DNA from: Oscillospiraceae bacterium
GTDB lineage: Bacteria > Bacillota > Clostridia > Oscillospirales > Oscillospiraceae
Length of the DNA: 64,000 nt
NCBI GenBank assembly: GCA_904501855.1
Contig: CAJGCI010000002.1
Location: forward strand, 1,182 to 65,181
Reading direction: 5' to 3'
Made by a program: the position numbers and the translations under genes. The notes beneath the pieces are model-generated. The model ran no database searches, had not been told where the DNA came from, and was given only the letters and a program-made list of their open reading frames with translations. Below, piece by piece: positions 6,348 through 21,511 of the stretch (positions are counted from its first letter, which is position 1; the number at the start of each line of letters is the position of its first letter).

Positions 6348-7757
6348 TTATTTCAGCCGTTTATCCAGTGAATCCGGAATGATGTTTACGTGCTCGATGC
6401 GCTCATGCCGAAGCACCTTCTGATTGTACTGTTCAACGGCGGCTTCAACGGATCGGGCTGGATCTTTCACATAAAGATCTGCCGACAGCCGGTCACGGAC
6501 AAGGGTCAGATCTGCGCGGTGAATATTGGGATCAAGCGCACACAGCATTTCCGACAATGCCGTCACATCCATGGTCTCACCGTTGGAGCCCACCAGCGTT
6601 TTCTTCTTCCTCTGGAGCACGATCAGTTTGCCGTTTCGGATCTTGCCGATATCTCCGGTGTGGAAGTATCCGTTTTCATCAAAACACTCTTCTGTCAGCT
6701 GTTCATCCAGGTATCCGAGAAAGACATTTTCTCCCTTTACAATAATCTCCCCGACGCCCTGTTCATCCGGATCGAAGATTCTGGCATCAATGTTGGAGAA
6801 GATCGTACCGGCGCTGTCATCGTCCTGATCTCCCGGATAATCGATGGAGAAAGAGGCGGCAGTTTCGGACATTCCGAAAGCCTGCAGCATGGGAAGTCCG
6901 CGATAGGCTCTTCGAAGTTCCTTCGGGCATGGTGCCCCGCTGCAGAAAAGGAAGCGGATCCTTGACCCAAAAGCCTGCCCGATCTGATCTCCGTACTGAT
7001 CCAGCAGTTTCTTATACACAAGCGGAACCGCGCAGAAGAAGGTGGGCTGTGACTCCAGCAGTTCCTCCGCAATCTTTGAAGTGGACGATGCCAGGAAGAT
7101 CTGGTACCCGTCAATTAGAGACAAATAATAACAGTAGCAGCTGGCGTATACATGATTCAGAGGAAGAAACAGGTACACCCTGTCTTCCGTCGTATACTGG
7201 ACTCTCTTGGACAGCTCCGAATAGCCGAAAAAGATATTTCTCAGTGACAGCTGGACGCCTTTGGACGGCCCTGTTGTTCCGGAAGAGAACACGATTTTGC
7301 TGCAGACATCCGGATCCCGGGATGAAAGATGGAACAATTGTTCACTTTCCGGCAGGTGCGGGATCTCATCAAAGCAGAGCGTCCGGATCTTCATCGTCTC
7401 CGGGATCTTCCGAACGGTCTCTTCCTTCTCCGACGCATACAGGATCGCTCTGGCGCCGATGGCTTCTGCGAGCTTCCGAACGCTTTCCCCTTTCATATCT
7501 TTGGCTACCACAACGCTGATTCCCACAAATGCTGTAACGGCAAGATCCGCCACCATCAGGGAATAGGAATTTCTCCCGTAGATAATGACCTTTTCATCCG
7601 CCAGCCCGAGCCGGAGCAGGTACTCCGCCAGGCGATAGGTGTCTTCGGTGAACTGACCAAACGTCGTTCCCTCAAATCGTCCCTGTACCTTCTGGAAGAT
7701 ATACTGGTTGTTTTTCCATTTCTGGTAATCTTCTTTCAGCAGCTTATTGACATCCAC
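6348..7757 (-). CDS. AMP-forming adenylating enzyme (ANL superfamily), operon gene 8
   Basis: FSSGTTGPSKGV (A3/P-loop motif) and YFHTGDIG...GKLIVLQRKKK (A7/A8-like). 469 aa, which is shorter than typical acyl-CoA synthetases. Confidence 0.8.
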   Translation of the reverse strand: MDVNKLLKEDYQKWKNNQYIFQKVQGRFEGTTFGQFTEDTYRLAEYLLRLGLADEKVIIYGRNSYSLMVADLAVTAFVGISVVVAKDMKGESVRKLAEAIGARAILYASEKEETVRKIPETMKIRTLCFDEIPHLPESEQLFHLSSRDPDVCSKIVFSSGTTGPSKGVQLSLRNIFFGYSELSKRVQYTTEDRVYLFLPLNHVYASCYCYYLSLIDGYQIFLASSTSKIAEELLESQPTFFCAVPLVYKKLLDQYGDQIGQAFGSRIRFLFCSGAPCPKELRRAYRGLPMLQAFGMSETAASFSIDYPGDQDDDSAGTIFSNIDARIFDPDEQGVGEIIVKGENVFLGYLDEQLTEECFDENGYFHTGDIGKIRNGKLIVLQRKKKTLVGSNGETMDVTALSEMLCALDPNIHRADLTLVRDRLSADLYVKDPARSVEAAVEQYNQKVLRHERIEHVNIIPDSLDKRLK

Positions 7758-9186
7758 GTTTCTGTTCCTTTTCTACAAGTTTTTTCAGCTTCAGATAATT
7801 GATCTTCGTATGGTGCTTGATGTCTTTGGGAATGGGGTCCAGGCACACCACCTTGGCTTCCAGCCGGTAGTGCTCCCGGAGGAAGCTTCGGATCATCTCC
7901 GGTTCTGTGCTGCTCTTTTCATAAAACAGGACCGTTTCTCCGTTCTGGTATACAACTGCACATTTCGGGATCGCCGGGAACTGAAGGATCACCTGCTGTT
8001 CGATCTCATTTGCACAGAGCTGCTGTCCCTCGACGGGGACATAAAATCCGTGCTTTCCACGATACAGAAGCCTTTCTTCTTTCAGCATCCCCACATCGTG
8101 AGTGTCATAGTATCCGTCCTGCAGGCGGATGTCCTCAAAGGACTTCGTGAGAAGCGCATCGCTTCGTACCAGGATATGCCCGTTGTCATCGATCCGGACT
8201 GAAACGCCGTCACACACTCTTCCCAGGGAACAGATCCCTTCTTCTTTCAGGTCGCGGATGAATTCATCCAGCGTATTCATGGCTATGAGATTACACTCTG
8301 TGGAGCCGTAAATATAAATGATCCTGCAGTCAGGATATTTTTCCTTTATGATCTCCGCCTCATGGAGGTTCAGGACCGCGCCGCCGAAATACATCAGTTC
8401 CAGGTGCGGATACATATTGGGTGTGCGCAGACAGAAATCCGGGGACGTCATGATCCGGGTGATGGCCAGATCCTGGAACTTCTCCAGCTTGCGAATGATC
8501 TTTTCCGTATTCTTCCTGCCCAGATTCACGTTGGGAATGGCAGTCGTCATGCCCTGGATAAGGTTTGAAAAGATATAGATATAGGACGTCGTAAGAACGA
8601 TATCCTCATTCTTTTTCGCTTCATTGTTTCTGGTCGTCAGGCGAAGCTGCTCATACAGATCGCCATGAGACCGGAGAAACAGTTTCGGCGTCCCGGTCGA
8701 TCCAGTCGTTACTGTTATCAGCCCGGCCGCGTCTTCTTCGATCTCATCCGGAACATACTCCTTTTCCGGACGCTCACTGTAAACGTGATCGATATTGATC
8801 ACGCTGCGGATCTCCCGGAAAGCCGGAAATGCATTCCTTGCCAGCTTTGTGTGGTTGGAAACCAGGATGTGATGCGGTCTGGTCTTTTGAAAAATCTCCT
8901 GCAGACTTTCCTGTTTTGCATAGATGTCCACGTACATGACGGAAACACCCATGCACATAGTCGCCAGCATGAACAGACACAGCGTGTAGCCGGAACTGGT
9001 AAATGTAAGGACCCGGTCTCCGGACTGTACGCCGTGATGATGCAGTACCGATACCATTTCTTCGACTTCTTTTCTCAGTTCCGCAAAGGTCCGGCTCTCC
9101 CGCCTGTTTTTCCGGAGATAATACACCGCAGTGCGTTCTTTGTTCTCCTCGCACGATTTATAGAATTCCTGTACAATCCTGCTCAT
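7744..9186 (-). CDS. AMP-forming adenylating enzyme (ANL superfamily), operon gene 7
   Basis: VTTGSTGTPKLF (A3 motif), YGSTE (A5-like) and YYDTHDVG...YRGK (A7/A8-like). 480 aa. Overlaps the next gene by 14 nt. Confidence 0.8.
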   Translation of the reverse strand: MSRIVQEFYKSCEENKERTAVYYLRKNRRESRTFAELRKEVEEMVSVLHHHGVQSGDRVLTFTSSGYTLCLFMLATMCMGVSVMYVDIYAKQESLQEIFQKTRPHHILVSNHTKLARNAFPAFREIRSVINIDHVYSERPEKEYVPDEIEEDAAGLITVTTGSTGTPKLFLRSHGDLYEQLRLTTRNNEAKKNEDIVLTTSYIYIFSNLIQGMTTAIPNVNLGRKNTEKIIRKLEKFQDLAITRIMTSPDFCLRTPNMYPHLELMYFGGAVLNLHEAEIIKEKYPDCRIIYIYGSTECNLIAMNTLDEFIRDLKEEGICSLGRVCDGVSVRIDDNGHILVRSDALLTKSFEDIRLQDGYYDTHDVGMLKEERLLYRGKHGFYVPVEGQQLCANEIEQQVILQFPAIPKCAVVYQNGETVLFYEKSSTEPEMIRSFLREHYRLEAKVVCLDPIPKDIKHHTKINYLKLKKLVEKEQKRGCQ

Positions 9187-10253
9187 TTGTTCTCCCCAAC
9201 TTCGTAGACCACAAAATCACGGTAGAAATAAGACTTTGTTGCCATGGTCTGCCGTTCGGACAGCTCTTTCAGATAACGGAACTCCGTTCCCGGCAGATAT
9301 CGGCGGTTCTGCATGTTGTAATAGGCAACGCGGGCACCGGGTACAGAAAGCTCCCGGAGTTTCTGAATGTTCTCTTCAAACTGTTCCTCGCTCATATATT
9401 CGAAAATATCGGAAAGGTTGAAGAATCCGTACCTGCCGTCAAGTTCCTGCAGGGTGCCTCGTTTCACTTCGATGCGGTCCAGCCGGCTGCGTATCGTTTC
9501 ATGAAACTGCTCCTGCAGATAATACGGGAGCGCGTCTTCGGTAAACTGATTGGTCAGGACATAGGTCATGTAGGGGTTGTTCCAGTTTGGAATCCTTCCC
9601 ATTCCGGAATCCGCTGTCTTCTTGATGTTGGATGCGCTGTTCTCCTTGTCCTCCACATAATTGTAAAATGCACGGTCGCGCCCCAGTTTTCCCATCATGC
9701 GGAAGCCGAAGAACACCTTGAATATCGCTTTCATCCTCCGGTTGTTGACCCAGCGGTCATAATACTTTTTCTGTGCTTCGATATCATGAAATGCGGCCAG
9801 TTTTGCCATTTTTCTTTTCGTTGTGAACAGCGGAACCACCCGGTCGCGGAAGATCTGAAAGTATCGTTCAAATTTTCCGATATGGACGATCCCTTTTTCA
9901 AAGAATTCCGGATGTTCGTAAAAGTACCGGAACGCTTCCGGATCCATCACCGGTTCCAGAGACTGAAACAGCGCCCAGGACCGCTCTGTCCCTCCGATTC
10001 CGAGGAGGGCCAGAAGATCTCTGTGACTGAGCATCTCAAATCCCGCTTTTTTCAGGTAAAAAAGATGGATCTGGGTCGGGTTGATATCAAATGCCGTTAT
10101 CGATTCCGGGTCTCCCAGCAGCATGGCGAGAGTATTGTCTCCTGCAGAAAGGATGGACGCTCCTCTCCGTCCCCGAATCTCCAGTGATTTCAGCAGATTT
10201 TCCGAGTCCTCCCAGCAGTTCGAATAACGTATAAAATCAAATTTCGCTTCCAT
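9183..10253 (-). CDS. DUF3419 / BtaA-like putative S-adenosylmethionine 3-amino-3-carboxypropyl transferase, operon gene 6
   Basis: N-terminal YSNCWEDSE followed by ILSAGDNTLAML, which resembles the BtaA/DUF3419 signature (xQCWEDP ... SxGxN). 356 aa. Confidence 0.65.
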   Translation of the reverse strand: MEAKFDFIRYSNCWEDSENLLKSLEIRGRRGASILSAGDNTLAMLLGDPESITAFDINPTQIHLFYLKKAGFEMLSHRDLLALLGIGGTERSWALFQSLEPVMDPEAFRYFYEHPEFFEKGIVHIGKFERYFQIFRDRVVPLFTTKRKMAKLAAFHDIEAQKKYYDRWVNNRRMKAIFKVFFGFRMMGKLGRDRAFYNYVEDKENSASNIKKTADSGMGRIPNWNNPYMTYVLTNQFTEDALPYYLQEQFHETIRSRLDRIEVKRGTLQELDGRYGFFNLSDIFEYMSEEQFEENIQKLRELSVPGARVAYYNMQNRRYLPGTEFRYLKELSERQTMATKSYFYRDFVVYEVGENK

Positions 10254-12804
10254 GTTGATGCCTCTCCAAAATCTCGATGGTTCCGTTGATGCCGTCTACC
10301 CGCACCTTGTCTCCGTCATGGATCTGCTCCGTCAGGCCGCGGACGCCCACCACAAGGGGTATGCCCATCTCCCGTGCGATTACGGCGGAATGGGACAGAA
10401 CGCTTCCCCGTTCGATAATGATTGCCTCTGCCATGGGGAACAGAATGGTCCATCCCGGATCGGTTCGCTTTGCCATCAGGATGTGACCTTGAAGGAACGG
10501 ATCTTCCGGATCCTCGACATAACAGACGATACCTTCTGTGGCCTTTCCTCCTCCGGCAACGCCCCGGAGCACACCTTCCTCCGGTGCTGTTTCCTGCTGG
10601 CTGTATATCGGGATCATGTTTTCTCTGCAGATATCTCCATAGAAATACATCCGCTCAAACGTTTCTTTTTTCTTGTTTTCGCGGTATTCTTCTTTTCTTC
10701 CTTCAATCCGCTGACGGACATCGTCGGTCAGCGTTCCCTGAACTATTTCCGTGATCTCATCCTTTTCCAGATAGAAGATATCCCGGTAATGGTCAATGCG
10801 TCCTTCCTGTTCAAAATTTCTTCCGATCCCGAGGAAGATATTTCGAACGATGTCATAGATATAGGTCCTTCTCAGACGAAGCCGTTCCCGGTTACGTATA
10901 AAGAATTTGGTAATTCGGATGAGCAGCCGGACTTTCGGCCGTTCCAGCGGCTTGTAACACTGATAGATCTGCTGTTCCCGGTCTTCACCCGGTGTGTTTT
11001 CCTGCCCGAGGTTTTTTGCCGGATTCATTGCCAGATAGTTTTTTATCGTCTGGAACAGAAATGCCGGATCCTCCGTCATGGTGATGGTCTCAAGTTTCAG
11101 CTCATCCATGCTGCGGGATCCGAATCGGCGGATATAGTCCTTCAGCTTTTCCGCGATCTCGCTTCCGTCCTCCAGAGAAAACTCGTCATTCAGAACGCGC
11201 TGTTTCAGATCGCTGTCCCCGCGGATTTCTTCCACGATATCCAGCAGATCTGTCGTCTGCTTTGCGCTCTCAACATTTCCCTGACGGCTGAGCACGCTGC
11301 TCAGCGCGCCTTCACTGTCCGGGACACCGTGCTGCTGCAGGCTGTCCGTCAGCTTTCCGTAGAACACCATCGCGCCCATGTCATTCCCAATGGGCGTGGT
11401 AAATTCGTCCAGGATCTTTTCCTCCAGTTCTCCGTAGATTCCCAGTAGATCCTGACTGCTCAAGCCTTCAAATCTCTGATTCTGATATGGGCCTGTCACT
11501 TCTTCAAACCGGCGGAGAAACGCATCGCTGTCTTTCTTCATCCGGATCATTTTCTTCAAAAACTGCCGGTGGATCCTTGCTGCTCGTTCATTTGCCTGTT
11601 CCTCGGTTTCGACCAGCGGGACTTTAACTCCCATCATCTTCTCCATGTATCCCTTGTTCTTATCGTATCCCGGATACAGAGAAGTCATCCGATACCAGCT
11701 GTTCAGCTTGTAGTAGACCTTGTTTTCAAAAAAGACCAGCATGTTATTCAGATCATCATCCACATCACGAAGGACATCCTCGCTGACCAGAAAATTTCTG
11801 GCTGTCTGGTGATAGATCTTTCCGTATACTTCCTTTGCAAAGGTAAATGTCAGCGGTGTGGTCACACCGGAATAGCTCTCAATGATATTGGAATTGTCCA
11901 GGATCGTGCGCGGCTTCCGAAGATCCAGATGGCTGTATGCTGTAATGGCACGGCACTGCAGAAACCATATCGCGGAATCCTTTATGGCAAACTCCATGTC
12001 CTGACCCACTTTCGGATCATAACTGTCCTCTATGATCCTTGCCTGTCGGGCAAGTGTCCGGATTACATCCTCCGACAACCCGCTTTCCCCGTTTTTGAGG
12101 ATCTGTTCCTGCAGGTCGACAACATAATCCATGCTGTCTTTCTCGCCGGATACCAGCTGTTCGCCCAGGCCTTTCACGACGCTGATCAGTGTTTCATCGG
12201 GATTGTTCGTGTTGGGGTTGACCGTAAACAGAACCCCTGCATAATCCGCATCCACCATCTCCTGGATGATCACCGCAGCGGCGATCTCCCGGTTGATCAG
12301 ACCATGCTGCTGCCTGTAAGCCATGATACGGGGAGAGAAACAGGATCGGTAGCAGTCACAGATCGCCTTTTCGATCTCTTCTTCCGTGCTGACATTGAGC
12401 GTGGACTCCATCATTCCGGCAAAAGACTGATCTGCAGAGTCCTCATCCACGGCACTGGACCGCACAGCGACCTTCTCCGCACCGGCTAGTTCCTGTGTCA
12501 GGGCATCCTGAAGAAGATTCCTCTGCGCATCGGAAAAGCGGCAACGGTCTAGCAGTGCGAGGATCTTCTCCCTGGATTCCTCCTGATAATCGGCCAGAAG
12601 CCCCTCGTATTCCTCGCGGTGGTCTCCAAGAAACTCATAAAAGAACTCCGTAGTCAGACAGATCCATCGAGGCACGGAAATATCCGGAATGGTGTTCAGA
12701 TGTCCCAGATTATAGGCCTTTCCTCCTACTTTCCGCCGGGATAATTCTTCGCCTCTGCCATTCCAAATTGCGGTTTTTTCTGAATGGTTGTTCTTTCTTG
12801 ACAT
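10237..12804 (-). CDS. PEP-utilising / PPDK-N family phosphotransferase with rifampicin-phosphotransferase-like three-domain architecture, operon gene 5
   Basis: N-terminal ATP-grasp signature GGKAYNLGHL. The C-terminal swivelling phosphohistidine domain reads RTDPGW...ERGSVLSHSAVIAREMGIPLVVGV. 855 aa with a long central region and no recognisable PEP/pyruvate TIM barrel. Confidence 0.8.
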   Translation of the reverse strand: MSRKNNHSEKTAIWNGRGEELSRRKVGGKAYNLGHLNTIPDISVPRWICLTTEFFYEFLGDHREEYEGLLADYQEESREKILALLDRCRFSDAQRNLLQDALTQELAGAEKVAVRSSAVDEDSADQSFAGMMESTLNVSTEEEIEKAICDCYRSCFSPRIMAYRQQHGLINREIAAAVIIQEMVDADYAGVLFTVNPNTNNPDETLISVVKGLGEQLVSGEKDSMDYVVDLQEQILKNGESGLSEDVIRTLARQARIIEDSYDPKVGQDMEFAIKDSAIWFLQCRAITAYSHLDLRKPRTILDNSNIIESYSGVTTPLTFTFAKEVYGKIYHQTARNFLVSEDVLRDVDDDLNNMLVFFENKVYYKLNSWYRMTSLYPGYDKNKGYMEKMMGVKVPLVETEEQANERAARIHRQFLKKMIRMKKDSDAFLRRFEEVTGPYQNQRFEGLSSQDLLGIYGELEEKILDEFTTPIGNDMGAMVFYGKLTDSLQQHGVPDSEGALSSVLSRQGNVESAKQTTDLLDIVEEIRGDSDLKQRVLNDEFSLEDGSEIAEKLKDYIRRFGSRSMDELKLETITMTEDPAFLFQTIKNYLAMNPAKNLGQENTPGEDREQQIYQCYKPLERPKVRLLIRITKFFIRNRERLRLRRTYIYDIVRNIFLGIGRNFEQEGRIDHYRDIFYLEKDEITEIVQGTLTDDVRQRIEGRKEEYRENKKKETFERMYFYGDICRENMIPIYSQQETAPEEGVLRGVAGGGKATEGIVCYVEDPEDPFLQGHILMAKRTDPGWTILFPMAEAIIIERGSVLSHSAVIAREMGIPLVVGVRGLTEQIHDGDKVRVDGINGTIEILERHQHGSEI

Positions 12805-12852
12805 GCCTTGTCCGTTCCTTCCCGTTTTTCGTTCTTCATAGAAAATAGTTTT

Positions 12853-13338
12853 CTATTGCTCCGCCTCATTTTTGCGACGGCGCAGTTTGTACAAGTGAAA
12901 ACCTGCCGCGAGAACCAGACACACTCCCGCCGTGATCAGCGTCCGTTGGTCCTTCCATCCGAGATACATACTGAGATAGTAAAAGGTCAGAAGCGGCAGA
13001 AACAGCAGTTTCAGCGGCTCGACCCGGTTCATCCATGCCAGATATCCCAGCAGCAGAATGCTGGCCAGTCCGGGAATCCGGAAAAAAACAAGATGCAGCA
13101 GCAGAAAGACCGCCGCAAGTCCGATGATCAGGCTCCTCAGCTGCTGCCTGGTCAGCGGTTTTTCTTTTCTGTCCGTATCATAATCCAGATAGTCATCTGC
13201 CGCGCGTACCAGATAGAACGTACACAGGGCAACCGGGAGCATTTCCCAGCAGAAATGCCCCGTGACTATGCTGTAGAGGCCTGCGGCGATGACTGCCCCA
13301 ATGCCGTACACCCAGTAGTTCAGAAAGTACTTCGTCAT
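12853..13338 (-). CDS. Small polytopic membrane protein with a UbiA-like Asp-rich motif, operon gene 4
   Basis: 161 aa with 5-6 predicted TM segments. RAADDYLDYDTDRK fits DxxDxxxD, the first Asp-rich motif of UbiA-superfamily prenyltransferases. Its start overlaps the upstream stop by 4 nt. Confidence 0.55.
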   Translation of the reverse strand: MTKYFLNYWVYGIGAVIAAGLYSIVTGHFCWEMLPVALCTFYLVRAADDYLDYDTDRKEKPLTRQQLRSLIIGLAAVFLLLHLVFFRIPGLASILLLGYLAWMNRVEPLKLLFLPLLTFYYLSMYLGWKDQRTLITAGVCLVLAAGFHLYKLRRRKNEAEQ

Positions 13339-14390
13339 TTCCGTTTTCTCTTATAGAGCTCCGCCTTTGCCAGGAGAATGGTCGGGCTGACCTTTGCGTA
13401 CCTGCACAGTTCCTTCAGTTCTTCTTTCGGTTTTTCTACCATCTGTTCCTGCTCCAGCATCTCCAGCGCTTCCTCCCGGGACATCATTCCCATCCGTATC
13501 AGCACGCTGATCTCCGGCAGTCGGTGAGGCCTGCCCTCTGCACACTGATAGATATACTTTGTGGCATTGTGAATGGAGCAGTCATAGTGGTTATAGTCTT
13601 CGGGGGGCGTCCATCCTGTTTCCTCTTTCAGAAACCGGACGATCTCCTTTTCATCATATCGGTAATAGAGAAAATAGGGTACGAACTCCCGGAATTCAAT
13701 TCCATCCACCCCGTCGAACGCTATGCTCCGAATATCGTTGTAAATTCCTTCGTCCACTTTTTCCCGGACGCTTTCCAGCAGACCGGCATAGCTTTCCGCA
13801 ATGTCGATCTCGTGGATGCTCTTCAATCCCATGTCCACGAATCTGGTAAAGACATCATTGCCGTATCTTCGCAGCATCTGTTCCGGAGATCTGCCGTGAA
13901 CACACATACCTGCATCCACTTTTACGGCATAGTTGATCATCGCTGCATATCCCGTATAGGAACATGCGATACACGGAACCAGGAAATGCTTCATGGAATA
14001 ATGATACTGCCTCTGCTGCATGGCCCGGTCAAAAGTGATGTACTCGTGATCGACTCCGTATGTCCGCACCGTCTTGTCGATGTTCTTTTTGGCCTCCTTG
14101 GACAGAAAGCCGTTATCCAGTGTAAACGTGCAGACATGCAGACCGTGTTTTCGGACCAGCTCATGCAGGACAAATTCGCTGTCTTTTCCTCCGGAGATTC
14201 CCAGGGCTGCATCGTACCGGTGCTTGCCGCGCACTGCATCCACACGTTCCTGAAACAACTGGTGAAGTGCATTTTCATCCTCCAGTTGAGCTCCGATTTT
14301 CTCATAGTTTCGACAGAAGTTGCACACACCGGAGGAATCAAACGAGATCCCGCGGACAGTCTCGTCGTTCAGACATCTTTTACATCTCAT
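13335..14390 (-). CDS. PP-loop ATP pyrophosphatase, N-acetyl-sugar amidotransferase (WbpG/PseA-like) family, operon gene 3
   Basis: N-terminal Cys-pair ribbon CKRC...CNFC, followed by the PP-loop GISGGKDSEF. 351 aa. Confidence 0.75.
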   Translation of the reverse strand: MRCKRCLNDETVRGISFDSSGVCNFCRNYEKIGAQLEDENALHQLFQERVDAVRGKHRYDAALGISGGKDSEFVLHELVRKHGLHVCTFTLDNGFLSKEAKKNIDKTVRTYGVDHEYITFDRAMQQRQYHYSMKHFLVPCIACSYTGYAAMINYAVKVDAGMCVHGRSPEQMLRRYGNDVFTRFVDMGLKSIHEIDIAESYAGLLESVREKVDEGIYNDIRSIAFDGVDGIEFREFVPYFLYYRYDEKEIVRFLKEETGWTPPEDYNHYDCSIHNATKYIYQCAEGRPHRLPEISVLIRMGMMSREEALEMLEQEQMVEKPKEELKELCRYAKVSPTILLAKAELYKRKRK

Positions 14391-15277
14391 TCTGTCAGCT
14401 CCTTTACAAATACCGCATACCGTTTTTCCTGATCTTCCACAGTGCTGTCATAGCGTTTGAATGTGCTTCGCTGCTCACACTGGAAATGGTAGACGGTCTG
14501 GTCATAGCCCAGCTCTCGAACAAATTTTGTTCCGAAATACAGCAGTGCAACGTACAGTTTCTGCTTCTGAAACTCTTTCCGCACCCCTACCGTTTTCGAG
14601 ATATACTGAGCTGGATCGTATGGGTTTGCATAGCTCATCACATACCCGGCGGCTCTCCCGTCTTTAAAAGCTGCAAAAACATGGATCTCGGGAATCTTTT
14701 TGGTCCATTCCAGATAGATTTCCTGAAACACCTCAAAGGGAATCTCCGAATACAGAAGGCTTCCCTGAAACGCATCGATGGAGACATCAAAAATGTCTTT
14801 TACGATCTGATAGGATTCTTCTCCCCGGTAGAGTTTGAAGTCAAATCCTTCCTTCTGCTTTTTCCGGAAGATCTCTTCGCCGGACTCAAACAGAACATTG
14901 TTTGTGTTGATGTGAGCGCTTCGATAGGTGTACAGCTCCCGGTATCCCAGCTGTCGGATAAAATCAACATAGTACGGCGGGTTCTCGCAGTCGGGATAGT
15001 ATTTCTGATCATACTGGCTGATCGCCCATCGATAGCTCATCCACGTCGTATAATTCACCGGTCCGATCAGATGCTTCTGCCCCAGTTCCCGGGCTCTCGC
15101 TTCCACTTTTCGGAACAGCTCTTTCACTTCCTCCAGATCATCGGAAAATTCCGCAAATCCGAACATGCATGGGTACTCTTCCAGTTTGTTGTTAATGATC
15201 AGGTAACAGGAGGATCTTCCTTGCTCAAAGTATTCCTTGTAGTCTGCAAGCTGCAGGATGGCCAGTTCCTTATTCAT
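14387..15277 (-). CDS. Hypothetical protein, possibly a GNAT-fold acyltransferase, operon gene 2
   Basis: 296 aa. The C-terminal half contains a degenerate motif-A-like segment, VGVRKEFQKQKLYVALLY. There are no other strong motifs, so the assignment is weak. Confidence 0.45.
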   Translation of the reverse strand: MNKELAILQLADYKEYFEQGRSSCYLIINNKLEEYPCMFGFAEFSDDLEEVKELFRKVEARARELGQKHLIGPVNYTTWMSYRWAISQYDQKYYPDCENPPYYVDFIRQLGYRELYTYRSAHINTNNVLFESGEEIFRKKQKEGFDFKLYRGEESYQIVKDIFDVSIDAFQGSLLYSEIPFEVFQEIYLEWTKKIPEIHVFAAFKDGRAAGYVMSYANPYDPAQYISKTVGVRKEFQKQKLYVALLYFGTKFVRELGYDQTVYHFQCEQRSTFKRYDSTVEDQEKRYAVFVKELTE

Positions 15278-16359
15278 AGTAGTCCTCTCTCTCCTTCCTT
15301 CTGCTGAAAAAGATCCAGCAGGCGATTTGTGTTGATGAGAAGCTGTTCAATAAAATCAATTTCGATGGATTCGGAGACGATCCTCAGCAGGCTCAGTCTG
15401 TTGACGATGAACTCCCTGATACAGAAGAGTACCCGATCAAGGTATTCCTGTTCCGTCAGATCATACGGAGATTCTTCCCTCAGCCGGCAGTAGTACCGGT
15501 GAAGAAGCTCCCGGATCTCCTCATCCGAAACGGTCCCGCACTCATAAACAAGCAGTTCCGCAACGTCGTGCTCCGGAATCTGATAACAGGCCAGTTCAAA
15601 ATCATAAAACATGACCTCCTCTCCCTGAACAAAAAAGTTGCGGGATGAGAAATCATTGTGCGTCAGCGTTTTAAACGCGCTGTGGCGTTCCTCTTCCTCA
15701 TGGATCCTGTCAATAAAGGCGTGGATCTCTCGAATCCGTTCCGTTCCGTATGTGCGGTTGTTCTCTTCTTCCCGGAGATCAAACATCATATGAAGGCACG
15801 GTCTTGCTTTGTAATAGTCTCTGCTGCTGTATTTGTTCAGCTGGAGTTCTGCGGCCGCATCTTCCTTTCCCATATAGAAGATGTGAAACGGAAGGATCCG
15901 ATCCAGTACCGCCTGAAGATCCCCTGCATTCAGCTCTTTCTCTTTCCAGACATAGTACTTGAACAGCAGATTTCTCGTGCCGCTCCGGTGATCGTTGTAA
16001 CAACCGTAATAATCGATCATGGCATTTTTCAGCGACGGTTCGATCCCCCGGTAAAGAACATCTTCCCGGAGATAGCTTTGGTCATATCCCAGTACTTTCC
16101 TGTGAAGCAGCAGCTCCTTCATCAGCCGGAAATCTTTGCCGCTTACAAGATTGATGCCGTTCTTCACCACGTTGTTGGATTTGATCTTCATCAGCAGTTC
16201 CGCAGTCTTTCCGTCATCAAACTCAACATCGATATGGTAGATTCCGCAGCGCTTCAAGGCGACCAGATTGTTGATGCTGGATATCCCCTCCAGCTCTCTT
16301 TTTTCCATGTGCCGGATCTTTTTGTTCATGATCCGCGCAATCTGTTTTTCTTCCCTCAT
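15274..16359 (-). CDS. Protein-kinase-fold small-molecule phosphotransferase (APH / choline-ethanolamine kinase family), operon gene 1
   Basis: Catalytic loop LTHNDFSSRNFF (HxDxxxxN) and metal-binding YDFE. The ATG at 16359 is preferred because AGGAG lies 5 nt upstream; the ORF track extends to 16494, across a terminator. Confidence 0.7.
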   Translation of the reverse strand: MREEKQIARIMNKKIRHMEKRELEGISSINNLVALKRCGIYHIDVEFDDGKTAELLMKIKSNNVVKNGINLVSGKDFRLMKELLLHRKVLGYDQSYLREDVLYRGIEPSLKNAMIDYYGCYNDHRSGTRNLLFKYYVWKEKELNAGDLQAVLDRILPFHIFYMGKEDAAAELQLNKYSSRDYYKARPCLHMMFDLREEENNRTYGTERIREIHAFIDRIHEEEERHSAFKTLTHNDFSSRNFFVQGEEVMFYDFELACYQIPEHDVAELLVYECGTVSDEEIRELLHRYYCRLREESPYDLTEQEYLDRVLFCIREFIVNRLSLLRIVSESIEIDFIEQLLINTNRLLDLFQQKEGERGLL

Positions 16360-16482
16360 ATGGTTCTCCTGTGCGAGGTTTTTCTTTATATCTTTAAAAG
16401 ACGCAATAATAACCCATTTTTTCCTTTTTACCAAATTATTCTGTCTGATACAAGCGTTTGCCATATTTTCCCATGCAATATT

Positions 16483-16520
16483 AAAAAAGACCACCGTCAG
16501 CCGCCCGGCTGTCAGTGGTC
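16483..16520 (-). terminator. Intrinsic terminator after the DUF4914-like gene
   Basis: On the minus strand: gaccactgacagcc-gggc-ggctgacggtggtc (14-bp stem with one mismatch and one GU pair) followed by tttttt. Starts about 20 nt after the stop at 16540. Confidence 0.7.
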
Positions 16521-16539
16521 TTTGCTCTGTTTTTGGGGT

Positions 16540-18438
16540 TTACCGAATATTCATCGGTGTGATGGCAAGATATTCCTCCAGAGGAGCATCATTCAGTGCC
16601 AGTTCAATGATGTTGCGGCCGATGGGATTGAGCCCGTTGGTATTGAACGGGGCAATCTGCTCTTTGATAAAGTCGGTTAGGATCTTCGCACCGGCATCAT
16701 AGCCGTCAAAGCCGACCTTGGACTGCAGCTCCGGACGAAGGAACGTTCTGCGGATATGCTGTCCGTCGATCTTCATGTCGGCCAGGGAATACCCGAACAA
16801 CGGACAGCGTGCTTCCACCAGGTCCTTCATTCGGACATTGCCCGTTCTTCTGGCAAGATATTCTCTCACCAGCCACTCGCCGGCAAAACCGATGTGATAC
16901 GCACCGATATACTGGTTGGGGATCAGCACGTTCAGCGTCGCCTGCGTGTTCATCATCTGGTGAAGGAGCAGGTTTGCCTGGGTGATCTTCTGTCCTGTGG
17001 CGAAGGGCCAGTAGGAACCGACGCCCTCGGCCTTCAGTCCGCTTCCCGCATTGGAATCGGCAATGGAAGGATTCTTGAATCCGCGGGGGCACACCAGCCG
17101 CCACAGCCATGCCAGAGAGATGGGAACGAACTGAACCATTCCCATAATTCCGTAATTGGGATTTTCCACCGTGGAAGGCGGCATGCGGACTCCGAAGGAT
17201 CGGATATTGACTTCCACCGGTTCATTGCCGGGGATGATGTTGTCGATCATCTCCCGGGGGATGATTACCCGGGGATTCGTACAGGGCTTTCCGGTGGACT
17301 CTTCCACATGTTCCCAAATGAGACATGTCGCGCCTGGAACACCATCCATATTGAAGAATTCCAGCGGTTCCGGCGGGTGAATGCTGATCCGCTCATACAT
17401 GGGGCTGTTGCCGTAGTAGTTGTCGCCGTCCATCCGCAAAAACCAGCCGTCTTCCGCGTCCGCAATGACCAGATGTCCGGATCCGTTCTGCATGTCCTTA
17501 TGCGCAAGGACCATATCATCTGCGATCGGATGGATCTTGCAGGTCTCACTGATGGTCAGATAATGTTTCTCGCCGCTGACCGTGTGGGTTCCCACCAGGA
17601 TCTGTCCGTTTTCCTCCTTATGGATCTCCTCCAGCATCTCGCTTTTGCCGCCGCCGGATGCGCCCTCATGCATGAAAACGACTTCATTCTCATACGGTGT
17701 CTCCAGCAGTGCCGCAGATGCGTGGTTGGTGATCCACCCTTCATGCTCGCCGATATCCAGCAGCACGGAGAAAACGCCCTTCTTCGCAGACGGACCGGGA
17801 TACAGATTGTATGCAAACACTTCGTGCAGATCCTCACTGCGCTGATGGACGACTACCTGTTTTCCCTTAAAGTGTGTGACACGGAACGGCGGCGCCACAT
17901 AGATGATGGCGCGTGGCTTGTAGTTCTCCCCGATCTCATGGATGCCCACAAATCCCTGCATGTTGGCAAGAGAAAGAGCGAAGAATGCCGCATTGGAAGG
18001 ACATACCATCAGAGAATCATATCCGTAGTATTTTCCTCCGGCGCGGAAAGGCAGCAGGATCACGCTCTGATCCTTAAACCACTCCATGGTCTCTTTACGC
18101 AGTTTGGAAAACTCATATCCGTAACGGTCCTTAAAATACGGCTTGTCCGACGGCAGATCATCTCCGATGCACATGCAGTCGGGATCGCGGCGGCGCATAT
18201 AGTCTTCCATAAAGTTGACAACCGGGCCGTTTTTGCATCGTACGACCTCCGCTTCTTTAAAAACTCCCTTGCCGGGAATGGTATATGTAACATCGAACCG
18301 GGAGCTGTGTGTGGGTCCGAAACACAGTTCCTCCAGCTGTTCTTTGGTCTCCGGATAACAGCGCCACTGGCAGTTTGTCACAGCGTCGGTCAGGTCCTCC
18401 GGCAGAACAAATCGATTGAAATAGGAATCTATCAACAC
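16540..18438 (-). CDS. P-loop protein resembling the HprK/PEP-carboxykinase fold (likely the DUF4914 family)
   Basis: 632 aa. The Walker A HEGASGGGKSEMLEEI closely resembles the HPr kinase GDSGxGKSE and PEPCK GxSGTGKT loops. GTG start with AAGGTGA about 7 nt upstream. Confidence 0.65.
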   Translation of the reverse strand: MLIDSYFNRFVLPEDLTDAVTNCQWRCYPETKEQLEELCFGPTHSSRFDVTYTIPGKGVFKEAEVVRCKNGPVVNFMEDYMRRRDPDCMCIGDDLPSDKPYFKDRYGYEFSKLRKETMEWFKDQSVILLPFRAGGKYYGYDSLMVCPSNAAFFALSLANMQGFVGIHEIGENYKPRAIIYVAPPFRVTHFKGKQVVVHQRSEDLHEVFAYNLYPGPSAKKGVFSVLLDIGEHEGWITNHASAALLETPYENEVVFMHEGASGGGKSEMLEEIHKEENGQILVGTHTVSGEKHYLTISETCKIHPIADDMVLAHKDMQNGSGHLVIADAEDGWFLRMDGDNYYGNSPMYERISIHPPEPLEFFNMDGVPGATCLIWEHVEESTGKPCTNPRVIIPREMIDNIIPGNEPVEVNIRSFGVRMPPSTVENPNYGIMGMVQFVPISLAWLWRLVCPRGFKNPSIADSNAGSGLKAEGVGSYWPFATGQKITQANLLLHQMMNTQATLNVLIPNQYIGAYHIGFAGEWLVREYLARRTGNVRMKDLVEARCPLFGYSLADMKIDGQHIRRTFLRPELQSKVGFDGYDAGAKILTDFIKEQIAPFNTNGLNPIGRNIIELALNDAPLEEYLAITPMNIR

Positions 18439-18471
18439 AGTATTTCACCTTTTCTTTGTGAGATACTGTCG

Positions 18472-18500
18472 ATTCTACCATCGTTTTTGGTCAAGTTCAA
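18472..18500 (-). promoter_or_regulatory. Sigma-70-type promoter for the DUF4914-like gene
   Basis: Minus strand TTGAAC - 17 nt - TAGAAT, with TGg immediately upstream of the -10 (extended -10). Lies about 30 nt upstream of the start codon. Confidence 0.55.
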
Positions 18501-18642
18501 CGAGTAGATTAACTGAATTCTGTAACTTTCGCCCACTTTGTCTTTGTTGCTATTATCACAGTTTTCCGGCAAATAACGCGATTTGATCCTTTTTTCGCAC
18601 ATATTGTTCCGCAGAGATCCCGGTAACAGGCCAAAAATGCGC

Positions 18643-18680
18643 AAAAAACTGCCTCTGTACCACAACAGATACAGAGGCAG
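18643..18680 (-). terminator. Intrinsic terminator after the galactokinase-like gene
   Basis: Minus strand ctgcctctgta-loop-tacagaggcag (perfect 11 bp) followed by tttttt. Confidence 0.75.
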
Positions 18681-18692
18681 CTCCTATTTTAT

Positions 18693-19769
18693 TCAGATTT
18701 TCAGGACCTGGCAGGAACCGGCTCCGAACCGCGCCTCCATGCCCTTTTTATATTCTTCGAAATACTCGTGGGGCATCAGTGCCTGAACACATCCTGCAAA
18801 TCCGCCTCCGTGGACGCGCCATGCGCCTTTCCCTTCCAGCAGTTTTGCGCTCAGCTCCAGACCTTCTTCCAGCTTGGTATCTCCGGTGGCGCTGGTCACG
18901 ATATTATTCAGATACTGCTCCGAAGATCTGCCCGACGCATTCATAAGCTTCATGTACGTTTCCCCGTCTTTGCGGAGGAGGGCATCTCTCATTTTGGGAA
19001 CACGCTCGTTCTCATCGAAGAAGTGTTTTGCCCTGCGGACCGGCCGGTAGGACACATCCCATTCCCGGGATCGGAACTCCGCCGGATCGACCTCCGAAAG
19101 AACGCCTTTGTCAAAAAGACTCGCGATGTAGGTCATATCGGACGGGATCATCGCATAGGAGGTCTCAAGCCCGGCGTGACTGCCTCCCGTATTGGTCAGG
19201 CACAGTGTCAGGCCCATTTCATCGAATCTCGTTTCAATGGGGAGGATCTCATCGGTAGCGAAGTCCACGTATACACAGGATCCCAGAGAGCTTGCCAGCT
19301 GATCCATCAGTCCGCACGGCTTGCCGAAGTGCTGATTTTCCGCCTGCTGTGCCAGCCGTGCAATCACGATGGGCTCCAGTTTCCCGTCGTTGTAGTAAGC
19401 GTTGAGAATCTTTCCCATCAGCACCGCAAATGCCGCGGAGGAAGAAAGCCCCGAACCCGCCGGCAGATTGCTGGTCACGACCGCGTCAAACCCGCCGATA
19501 TCCAGACAGAAATCCTGCATTGCCGCGGCAACACCGCGAACCAGGGCTCTGGTTGTGCCGAATTCCTCCGGTTTGACATCCAGATATCTCAGACGGATCT
19601 CGTCCTCTCCAAAACCTTCGGACCGAATCCGGATAACATTGTCATTGTTCTTGACGCAGTGGGCTGTAAGACCGGTATCTACGGCAGCTGCAATGACACG
19701 TCCCTTTTGATGGTCGGTATGATTTCCTGCCAGCTCCGTGCGTCCGGGAGCAAAGAAAACATCACTCAT
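18693..19769 (-). CDS. GHMP kinase of the galactokinase family
   Basis: APGRTELAGNHTDHQKG resembles the galactokinase signature GRVNLIGEHTDY, and the GHMP ATP motif PAGSGLSSSAAF is present. 358 aa. There are no galT/galE neighbours. Confidence 0.75.
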   Translation of the reverse strand: MSDVFFAPGRTELAGNHTDHQKGRVIAAAVDTGLTAHCVKNNDNVIRIRSEGFGEDEIRLRYLDVKPEEFGTTRALVRGVAAAMQDFCLDIGGFDAVVTSNLPAGSGLSSSAAFAVLMGKILNAYYNDGKLEPIVIARLAQQAENQHFGKPCGLMDQLASSLGSCVYVDFATDEILPIETRFDEMGLTLCLTNTGGSHAGLETSYAMIPSDMTYIASLFDKGVLSEVDPAEFRSREWDVSYRPVRRAKHFFDENERVPKMRDALLRKDGETYMKLMNASGRSSEQYLNNIVTSATGDTKLEEGLELSAKLLEGKGAWRVHGGGFAGCVQALMPHEYFEEYKKGMEARFGAGSCQVLKI

Positions 19770-19936
19770 TTCTTACCGTTTTTTCCTTTCCTTAAACGCT
19801 AGAATCTCTCGTTTTCCATCCTGTCGTATTTTTCTCTGAATAAATCATATTACTGCCATAAAACAATGTCAATGAACGGTATTTTACAATTCTTTCCTTC
19901 ATTTTGAGTTCTTTTTTTGCATTCTGTCAGCCGTCT

Positions 19937-19959
19937 AGATAGGTGTCTTAACATTATCT
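19937..19959. promoter_or_regulatory. Candidate NiaR operator upstream of pncB
   Basis: Imperfect palindrome agataGGTGTCTTAACAttatct. It shares the GTGTCTT(G/A)ACA core with the site at 22088-22115. Confidence 0.45.
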
Positions 19960-19990
19960 CATTTTTGTCAATGTTTCCCTGCCGTTTTCA

Positions 19991-20019
19991 TTGCTTTGCA
20001 TTCCGGCAAAGGATATAAT
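19991..20019 (+). promoter_or_regulatory. Candidate promoter of pncB-niaR
   Basis: TTGCTT - 17 nt - TATAAT, about 30 nt upstream of the ATG at 20051. Confidence 0.5.
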
Positions 20020-20050
20020 TGATACCATCAAACCTCAAGGAGGTATCCTG

Positions 20051-21511
20051 ATGGACAAGACAAGTAACATTAATTTATCAATGCTGTTCGATTTCTACGA
20101 GCTTACCATGGGAAATGGCTATTTCCAGAACAACATGGGAAATGAGATCTCTTATTTTGATGTGTTCTACCGTTCCGTCCCGGACAAGGGAGGCTTTGCC
20201 ATTGCTGCAGGGCTGGAGCAGGTAATCGATTACATAAAAGATCTTCACTTCAACGAGGAAGATATTGCTTATCTCCGCGGCCGCAACCTCTTCTCCGAAG
20301 GGTTTTTAGAGTATCTGGCAAACTTCAAGTTTACCGGAGATATCTGGGCGGTCCCCGAAGGAACTCCCATCTTCCCCATGGAACCGTTTATGACGGTAAA
20401 GGCTCCCTCGATCCAGGCTCAGCTCATCGAGACTTATGTTCTGCTGGCTCTGAATCACCAGAGCCTCATCGCCACAAAAGCAAACCGCATCGTCCGCGCA
20501 GCCAAGGGCCGTGCCGTGATGGAATTCGGCTCCCGTCGCGCCCAGGGTATTACCGCTGCCGTGACCGGTGCCCGTGCCGCATATATCGGCGGCTGCATCG
20601 GAACCGCCTGTGCGGTCTCTGATGAGATCTATGGTGTTCCCGCACTGGGAACCATGGCGCACTCTTGGGTCCAGATGTTCGACTCCGAATATGAGGCGTT
20701 CGTTGCTTACTGCAAATGCTATCCCAACAGCGCCACTTTGCTGGTGGACACCTATAATTCCCTGAAATCCGGTGTTCCCAACGCGATCCGCGCGTTCAAT
20801 GAAGTCCTGAAACCGCTGGGCATCACAAAATGCGGAATCCGATTCGATTCCGGTGACATGACCTATCTCACCGTAAAAGCACGCAAGATGCTGGATGAGG
20901 CCGGATGGCCGGAATGCAAGATCACCGTATCCAACTCTCTGGATGAACGTCTGATCACGGAACTTCTGCATCAGGGCGCGGCCATCGACAACTTCGGTGT
21001 TGGCGAACGTCTTATTACCTCCAGTTCCTCTCCGGTATTCGGCGGTGTATACAAACTGTGCGCAGTGGAAGACGATGACGGTACCATTATTCCCAAGATC
21101 AAGATCAGCGAAAACACCGCCAAGATCACGAACCCGGGATTCAAGCACACCTATCGGTTTTACGACAAGGAGACCGGCATGGCGGAAGCGGATTATATCT
21201 GCCTCCATGATGAGACCGTGGACGACTCTCAGCCCATCACCATCTGTGACCCCGAGGCGCGCTGGAAAAAGAAGACCTATGACAACTATGTTGCCAAGGA
21301 ACTTCTGGTTCCCATTTTCCAGAACGGCGAGCTCGTTTACGAGATGCCGACGCTCAAGGAAATCCAGGCCTACTGCAAGGAACAGGTGGATACACTCTGG
21401 CCGGAAGTCAAGCGCTTCGACAACCCGCATAACTACTATGTCGATCTGTCCGAAAAGCTGATGGCGCTGAAGGACAAGATGCTTAACGAAAGCTCGGGAA
21501 AGGACTCCTAA
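20051..21511 (+). CDS. pncB: Nicotinate phosphoribosyltransferase
   Basis: LFDFYELTMGNGYF N-terminus, the GTMAHSWVQ motif and a length of about 486 aa. The ATG at 20051 has GGAGG 7 nt upstream; the ORF track starts at an upstream TTG. Confidence 0.9.
   Translation: MDKTSNINLSMLFDFYELTMGNGYFQNNMGNEISYFDVFYRSVPDKGGFAIAAGLEQVIDYIKDLHFNEEDIAYLRGRNLFSEGFLEYLANFKFTGDIWAVPEGTPIFPMEPFMTVKAPSIQAQLIETYVLLALNHQSLIATKANRIVRAAKGRAVMEFGSRRAQGITAAVTGARAAYIGGCIGTACAVSDEIYGVPALGTMAHSWVQMFDSEYEAFVAYCKCYPNSATLLVDTYNSLKSGVPNAIRAFNEVLKPLGITKCGIRFDSGDMTYLTVKARKMLDEAGWPECKITVSNSLDERLITELLHQGAAIDNFGVGERLITSSSSPVFGGVYKLCAVEDDDGTIIPKIKISENTAKITNPGFKHTYRFYDKETGMAEADYICLHDETVDDSQPITICDPEARWKKKTYDNYVAKELLVPIFQNGELVYEMPTLKEIQAYCKEQVDTLWPEVKRFDNPHNYYVDLSEKLMALKDKMLNESSGKDS

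Follow-up and report, generated by a model that had tools for sequence, protein, structure and literature searches.

The node at which phosphoenolpyruvate (PEP), pyruvate and oxaloacetate meet is the chief switch point in central carbon metabolism. Only three types of PEP carboxykinase (PEPCK), dependent on ATP, GTP or pyrophosphate (PPi), are recognised in a recent review (PMC8100219). Here we consider a bacterial gene whose product may belong beside them. It lies in a stretch of 64,000 nucleotides, called the window below, from an Oscillospiraceae bacterium (NCBI GenBank assembly GCA_904501855.1, contig CAJGCI010000002.1, positions 1,182 to 65,181 of the forward strand). An intact open reading frame (ORF) with a GTG start occupies positions 16540-18438 of the window on the minus strand and encodes a protein of 632 amino acids, which matches the family DUF4914 (PF16260) over profile positions 1-611 of 612 (E 2.4e-293; 974.3 bits against a gathering cut-off of 25.7). 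An earlier description of this DNA from its letters alone (the sequence-only reading) had noted a 632-residue ORF with a Walker A motif and had guessed at DUF4914; both statements hold, the motif being the P-loop (kinase-1a) HEGASGGGKSEMLEEI at residues 257-272 (17623-17670, minus strand). The explanation that we favour, with a probability of about 0.5, is that DUF4914 is a PEPCK-type carboxykinase which interconverts PEP and oxaloacetate and is transcribed alone. The broader statement, that DUF4914 is an enzyme of the PEPCK superfamily unrelated to the operon beside it, is very probably correct.

The relationship to PEPCK escapes the standard family models. At E ≤ 10 the Pfam scan of the window protein returned DUF4914 only, with no match to PEPCK_ATP (PF01293), PEPCK_GTP or Hpr_kinase_C; the NCBIfam scan, including the PEPCK models of that collection, gave no match, and neither did a search of PDB sequences with the single sequence. 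Named relatives in the databases are labelled ‘DUF4914 family protein’ or ‘hypothetical protein’. Homology to ATP-PEPCK, at an identity of only 13-15%, is seen at the level of profile-profile comparison only. Two profiles were compared by hhalign, one of ten diverse DUF4914 proteins and the other of eleven ATP-PEPCKs drawn from the same phylum's genomes; the match had a probability of 97% (E 9e-11) over 493 columns, pairing residues 14-614 with residues 4-518 of PckA. A less diverse profile of 128 DUF4914 sequences gave the same alignment, with a probability of 56% and an E value of 1e-4. In a profile search of PDB sequences, the only near-significant matches were the ATP-PEPCKs 1j3b and 1ytm, from T. 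thermophilus and A. succiniciproducens (E 0.016 and 0.04, respectively).

The predicted structure points in the same direction. An AlphaFold2 model of the window protein, built on the 128-sequence alignment, had a mean pLDDT of 93.7 and a pTM of 0.92. In a Foldseek comparison of this model with the PDB the top 50 matches were all PEPCKs, of the ATP, GTP and PPi types, with E values down to 6.7e-23 and TM-scores of 0.62-0.72 on the query, or 0.72-0.78 on ATP-type targets. DUF4914 is thus predicted to have the whole two-domain PEPCK fold together with the PEPCK catalytic residues. The sequence-only reading had spoken of an HprK/PEPCK-like phosphotransferase and had proposed a comparison of its fold with both kinds of structure. 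The comparison came out in favour of PEPCK, with no HprK among the 50 matches, and the label stands in part: the P-loop is of the structural class meant, whereas the likeness to HprK is limited to that loop and the likeness to PEPCK is full-length. An HPr-kinase-like kinase/phosphorylase acting on a protein substrate is the reading that the P-loop on its own would suggest, as GASGGGKSE resembles the GDSGVGKSE of the host's HprK and is followed by an (I/V)ADD motif. We consider it scarcely credible. The hhalign probability against the host's own HprK is 3.9%, over 77 columns (P-loop region only), Hpr_kinase_C was absent from the Pfam matches, the 50 structural matches to PEPCK cover both domains, and a separate, genuine HprK is encoded elsewhere in the host genome.

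The correspondence with PEPCK extends to individual residues of the active site. The residue-conservation alignment comprises 128 relatives at 33-92% identity and has 75 invariant columns, all of them defined on and present in the window protein. They include R82, R84, Y213, G215, K219, K220, H239, G259, S261, G262, K265, S266, D307, D308, E329, R335, N388 and R390, which the hhalign alignment places on the PEPCK motifs TGRSP, YxGExKK, MHCSAN, GxSGTGKT, GDDE, FEGGCYAK and NTR. Written out with the DUF4914 sequence first and that of ATP-PEPCK second, the paired motifs are YMRRRDPD and YTGRSPND, YPGPSAKKGVFSVL and YAGEIKKSIFSVM, NHASAA and MHCSAN, GASGGGKSE and GLSGTGKTT, DAEDGWFLR and NFEGGCYAK, NPRV and NTRA, and SFGVRMPP and AFGVLPP. 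Two of these stretches are conserved almost throughout. In the P-loop, which aligns with GLSGTGKTT of ATP-PEPCK, residues H257, G259, S261, G262, K265, S266 and E267 are invariant. In the YPGPSAKK motif (residues 213-220; 17779-17802, minus strand), the counterpart of the PEPCK-specific substrate and Mn motif YxGExKK and aligned with YAGEIKK of PckA, the invariant residues are Y213, P214, G215, P216, S217, K219 and K220.

These positions can be set against the ligand-binding residues of E. coli PckA. R65, Y207 and R333, which bind oxaloacetate and CO2, are aligned with R84, Y213 and R390. K213, H232 and D269 bind Mn2+, and the counterparts of K212/K213, H232 and D268/D269 are K219/K220, H239 and D307/D308. 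K254 and T255 bind phosphate and Mg2+; S250/K254/T255 correspond to S261/K265/S266. All of these counterparts, and that of PckA K288, are invariant among the relatives.

In the mechanism that we propose, the N-terminal domain together with YPGPSAKK, H239 and D308 would provide the sites for a divalent metal and a small oxo-acid, and R84, Y213 and R390 would act as the oxaloacetate/CO2-binding R65, Y207 and R333 do in E. coli PckA. The P-loop, through K265 and S266, would hold the phosphoryl donor with a second metal, and transfer of the phosphoryl group would go together with decarboxylation or carboxylation. As the most likely reaction we propose oxaloacetate + NTP <-> PEP + CO2 + NDP, which would make the DUF4914 enzyme the direct link between PEP and oxaloacetate in its host. 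Catalysis, substrate and direction are inferred here from homology, and what is given is the most likely assignment.

Gene neighbourhoods in other genomes provide a second line of evidence. In a metagenome-assembled genome (MAG) of a rumen Oscillospiraceae, whose DUF4914 protein is 83% identical (locus L006, 8001-14623), the DUF4914 gene is followed after 18 bp by a same-strand cluster of four genes, which encode an OadA-like carboxyltransferase, a biotin carrier (BCCP), the beta subunit of a Na+-pumping oxaloacetate decarboxylase (OAD_beta) and a member of the acetyl-CoA hydrolase/transferase family. In distant lineages genes concerned with CO2, bicarbonate or oxaloacetate recur beside DUF4914. 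One lineage has carbonic anhydrase and pyruvate carboxylase; another carbonic anhydrase, purC and purK; a third SbtA, a bicarbonate transporter, directly downstream of DUF4914 and an MpsC-family gene upstream of it; a fourth carbonic anhydrase, an MpsC-family gene, Sua5 and PurE; a fifth an MpsC-family gene and a class-3 FBPase; and a sixth 2-oxoacid:ferredoxin oxidoreductase, PurK and PurE. In several families of Bacillota, PFOR and isocitrate dehydrogenase, or OFOR subunits, lie near DUF4914. In a set of 19 non-redundant loci MpsC is the commonest Pfam family among immediate neighbours, and four of the ten distant contexts had no neighbours concerned with CO2, bicarbonate or oxaloacetate. 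This recurring theme of CO2, bicarbonate and oxaloacetate is in keeping with an enzyme for which CO2 is a substrate or a product at the level of oxaloacetate. The substrate of PEPCK is CO2, not bicarbonate (PMC8100219).

Two further observations concern these neighbourhoods. Where an MpsC-family (DUF2294) gene precedes DUF4914, as in L206 (7220-8000), L116 (7297-8000), L096, L104-L106, L179 and L193, a non-coding gap of 80-840 nt lies between the two. ABC-ATPase matches were obtained near many DUF4914 loci and were discarded as generic cross-matches.

The genome of the host, a rumen Oscillospiraceae, encodes pyruvate carboxylase, PPDK, enzyme I and three pyruvate kinase-like genes besides HprK; neither OAD_beta nor MpsC was found in its assembly, which is 90.6% complete. 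Since no recognised PEPCK or PEP carboxylase (PEPC) was found in the host, DUF4914 is the only candidate there for a direct link between PEP and oxaloacetate. Thermotoga maritima, included as a control, has DUF4914 and OAD_beta and neither canonical PEPCK. On a wider scale we sampled 301 genomes of the phylum, the window's own among them, and found DUF4914 matches in 28 (~9%), 26 with intact copies and 2 with decayed ones. Two arguments from this distribution were tried and rejected. DUF4914 and canonical PEPCK complement each other only weakly in their phyletic distribution, a canonical PEPCK being present in 10 of 26 carriers and in roughly half of the non-carriers, which is of no use as an argument either way; nor is OAD_beta enriched in carriers (16/26, compared with 161/301 overall).

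The same survey yielded some observations of separate interest. The decayed DUF4914 genes, with many in-frame stops, are at G111:C1:1076688-1078554 and G284:C14:19334-19952; genome G284 has decayed DUF4914 fragments only and an intact GTP-PEPCK elsewhere. Four ORFs of 546-590 amino acids (G154:C7:46553-47716, G192:C5:658-1893, G230:C6:37550-38785 and G222:C65:5179-6357) match PEPCK_ATP weakly (E 1e-17 to 2e-22, profile positions ~21-447) and may represent another divergent PEPCK-like group in the phylum.

Several points weigh against a carboxykinase acting between PEP and oxaloacetate. The neighbours found in close relatives, namely truA (divergent), ddl and potABCD, reflect shared ancestry and are uninformative on function. 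W522 and L528 stand at the columns aligned with the adenine-pocket residues R449 and T455 of PckA, in a part where the alignment is less certain, and the P-loop of DUF4914 is separated from the DD motif by an insertion of ~25 residues, with an inserted hairpin at residues 270-303; an NTP is therefore no more than a candidate phosphoryl donor. A literature search on DUF4914, PF16260 and a new PEPCK class found no paper. The host assembly gave no match to PEPCK_ATP, PEPCK_GTP or either PEPC family, an absence that at 90.6% completeness is not proven. Finally, a canonical PEPCK is also present in 10 of the 26 intact carriers (ATP-PEPCK in 7 and GTP-PEPCK in 3, the latter all from one family). This co-occurrence suggests that DUF4914 is not a simple replacement for PEPCK and differs from it in reaction, direction or regulation.

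Some of these points can be accommodated by an enzyme with the PEPCK fold whose reaction depends on a metal and a nucleotide but is not the interconversion of PEP and oxaloacetate. The candidates would be (de)carboxylations linked to inorganic carbon, either on another oxo-acid or enol substrate or in the service of aminoimidazole ribonucleotide (AIR) carboxylation in purine synthesis. Such an enzyme is possible, and less probable than the PEP-oxaloacetate carboxykinase. The carriers that also have a canonical PEPCK speak for it, as do the altered base-pocket positions and the insertion after the P-loop; in addition, purE or purK adjoins DUF4914 in several lineages, the neighbours are MpsC-family genes, carbonic anhydrase or SbtA rather than genes of the tricarboxylic acid (TCA) cycle, and DUF4914 falls below every Pfam and NCBIfam PEPCK model. 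A different reaction is harder to reconcile with the invariance of the R65, Y207 and R333 equivalents and of both metal sites. It also leaves aside that DUF4914 shares an operon with oxaloacetate decarboxylase in the close relative L006, that pyruvate carboxylase adjoins it in another lineage, and that 16 of the 26 carriers are without any other PEPCK.

Whichever reaction it catalyses, the enzyme has no visible connection with the eight-gene operon next to it. The sequence-only reading had proposed that the protein supplies or recycles a phosphorylated intermediate for this operon, which encodes an APH-like kinase and a PEP-synthase-like enzyme, and the two do adjoin each other physically, an adjacency kept in two other genomes, L002 (the Ruminococcaceae MAG RUG14779) and L003 (a rumen Oscillospiraceae MAG). 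These two belong to the same lineage as the window, with DUF4914 proteins 98-99% identical to that of the window and dS values in the DUF4914 gene of 0.43 and 0.72. When 80 loci of other genomes were searched over 8 kb with the fifteen proteins that neighbour DUF4914 in the window, the operon genes and the galK-like gene on the other side adjoined DUF4914 only in L002 and L003; among the other 78 loci (70-83% identity), none had any operon gene or the galK-like gene within 8 kb. The operon marker DUF3419 occurs in 3 of the 301 genomes, and the two besides the window's own are without DUF4914. The two families therefore co-occur in none of the 300 other genomes, DUF3419 being absent from all 27 other genomes with DUF4914 matches. 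The proposed tie thus failed on both counts, adjacency and co-occurrence, and DUF4914 is distributed independently of the operon.

Rates of divergence separate the two in a similar manner. In the comparison with L002 and L003, identity is 76-95% for proteins of the operon and 98-99% for DUF4914; DUF4914 and the genes on its far side from the operon are 96-99% identical. The operon (window 6348-16359) may also be compared with its flanks as a whole, DUF4914, the GHMP kinase, NAPRT and hisZ/hisG being 90-99% identical in these two genomes. The operon evolves faster than its surroundings. The GC profile gave no sign of a foreign origin for the DUF4914 gene or for the operon. A terminator and a separately conserved promoter lie between them, the operon's own promoter TTGGTA-17-TATTAT being found at 16434-16406, 3' of the DUF4914 terminator. 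A service of DUF4914 to the adjacent operon is, on this evidence, most unlikely, and the two are neighbours through an accident of gene order in this one lineage rather than through a shared function.

Two annotations in the immediate surroundings deserve comment. For the APH-like kinase, encoded by the first gene of the operon, the longest ORF (15274-16494, minus strand; 406 amino acids) overlaps the DUF4914 terminator. The true start is likely to be the conserved ATG at 16359 (MREEKQ), which has AGGAGA as its ribosome site and lies downstream of TTGGTA-17-TATTAT; the protein would then have ~361 amino acids. Upstream of DUF4914, the ‘galK-like’ GHMP kinase (18693-19769, minus strand) scores far below every galactokinase equivalog cut-off (e.g. 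173 bits against 499), and its substrate is probably not galactose.

The DUF4914 gene itself appears to form a transcription unit of its own. A predicted sigma-70-type promoter with an extended -10 element, TTGAAC-17-TGgTAGAAT, lies at 18472-18500 on the minus strand and was located by a consensus scan and by conservation. The scan as a whole performed at the level of chance, returning 9 sites where shuffles led us to expect 9.0, so that the match alone is no evidence. Conservation is more informative here: the -35 element, the 17-nt spacer, TGgTAGAAT, the short leader and the Shine-Dalgarno sequence are invariant in the window, L002 and L003. Directly 5' of the -35 element, a block of ~65 nt (18501-18567, minus strand) is near-invariant between the window and L002 and largely kept in L003. 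In the same comparison, substitutions and large indels abound in the DNA that separates this block from the upstream terminator. Beyond this lineage, the pattern TTGnnn-N13-16-TGnTAnnnT, most often as TGGTAAAAT, is present in 95 of 158 non-identical upstream regions of DUF4914 relatives, compared with 4.4 (maximum 8) in shuffles and 0 in an equal stretch inside the gene. We conclude that an extended -10 promoter belonging to the DUF4914 gene is a predicted feature of the family as a whole. The ~65-nt block may be a putative regulator or UP site. It contains TGTGATAATAGCAACA, which loosely resembles the CRP/FNR-type TGTGA-N6-TCACA.

Predicted intrinsic terminators stand on both sides of the gene. 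That of DUF4914, a hairpin followed by UUUUUU, is at 16480-16523 on the minus strand (-25.7 kcal/mol, z -6.26), and that of the upstream galK-like gene, a hairpin with six U, at 18641-18685 on the same strand (-28.2 kcal/mol, z -5.83). Both were missed by a simple terminator scan and were found by folding, and for neither did any of 200 shuffles fold equally well. The stem of the upstream terminator is kept by compensatory pair changes, from C-G to T-A in L002 and at another position in L003, and that of the DUF4914 terminator is kept with changed bases in both genomes. The upstream terminator is predicted to insulate the DUF4914 promoter from the galK-like gene. An Rfam search of 16000-20200 gave no match, and the leader is only ~27 nt long; there is accordingly no known leader RNA in this region. 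The promoter and the flanking terminators that the sequence-only reading had picked out were thus recovered, and a stand-alone, insulated arrangement in which the gene would be transcribed alone is well supported by the predicted signals and their conservation.

Translation would begin at the GTG. A Shine-Dalgarno sequence, AGGTGA (18445-18450, minus strand), read from the sequence and kept in L002 and L003, lies 6 nt 5' of this codon, an in-frame TGA stands immediately before it, and its position is that of the ATG of relatives (MFIDSFF in L004). As regards the annotation of relatives, many 98%-identical database entries (P0004-P0035) are given as 646 rather than 632 amino acids, and one 47%-identical relative (P0123) as 831 amino acids, lengthened at the N terminus by low-complexity sequence; the starts of such entries look as if they had been called differently or too far 5'.

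Conservation of the protein is unusually strong over a wide range of organisms. Identity to the window protein is 70-83% across rumen and gut Oscillospiraceae and still ~47-54% for members from Verrucomicrobia, Kiritimatiellia, Anaerolineae and Halanaerobiales, with a few divergent branches at 27-40%. The dN/dS ratio of the gene is 0.014-0.015 against L002 and L003, at dS 0.43-0.72. Within DUF4914, an unstudied family, the window protein is a typical member; its conservation is very strong and it is under purifying selection. This extreme conservation (~50% identity across phyla), combined with a complete PEPCK active site, makes DUF4914 a candidate for a missing or additional reaction at the PEP-pyruvate-oxaloacetate node.

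We suggest tentatively, and with somewhat less than even odds, that DUF4914 represents a fourth, unrecognised class of PEPCK, or else a carboxykinase whose phosphoryl donor or oxo-acid substrate is new, and that it provides the link between PEP and oxaloacetate in many anaerobes that seem to be without PEPCK. If this is true, Clostridia of the gut and rumen would be among these anaerobes, together with Thermotoga, Verrucomicrobia and Anaerolineae, and in some of them DUF4914 would supply a Na+-pumping oxaloacetate decarboxylase or act together with pyruvate carboxylase, subject to control that responds to CO2. The carrier organisms are important to fermentation in the rumen and gut, and the reaction is left blank or mis-assigned in current metabolic models. 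For annotation, the gene is best described as encoding a PEPCK-like enzyme and should not be counted in the neighbouring orphan operon. What the window and its relatives add is a negative test of linkage to that operon, an oxaloacetate-decarboxylase operon in a close relative, a promoter that is predicted to be family-wide and a measure of selection.

How, then, does DUF4914 compare with the systems already described? With HprK/P (Hpr_kinase_C, PF07475) it has in common a P-loop of the form GxSGxGKSE followed by an ADD motif, both belonging to the same structural class of PEPCK-like P-loops, but it does not have the N-terminal domain of HprK. The closest relationship in sequence is to ATP-PEPCK (PckA, EC 4.1.1.49; 1AQ2, 1OEN, 1YLH and 1J3B), with which the model shares the same full-length two-domain fold (Foldseek E 6.7e-23, TM 0.64/0.76) as well as the invariant catalytic counterparts listed above. 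DUF4914 differs from this class in being ~100 residues longer, with a longer and different helical end at the C terminus, in having GKSE instead of GKTT in the P-loop, and in one extra residue in the Y..KK motif. GTP-PEPCK (EC 4.1.1.32, PF00821; M. tuberculosis 4WOU and rat cytosolic 2RK8) is of similar length at ~600 amino acids and has the same fold and catalytic core (TM 0.60-0.69), although there is no match to its sequence model and the ATP class gives the better alignment with the DUF4914 profile. PPi-PEPCK (EC 4.1.1.38; 6K31 and 8E1U) gave the highest TM-scores normalised to the query, 0.65-0.72. These proteins are far larger, at ~1100-1130 amino acids (1108-1126 for the PDB targets) compared with 632, so that only the core aligns, at ~11% identity, and DUF4914 differs from them in retaining the classical GxxGxGK(S/T) P-loop. 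PPi-PEPCK nonetheless provides an example of a PEPCK core that works with a non-nucleotide phosphoryl donor.

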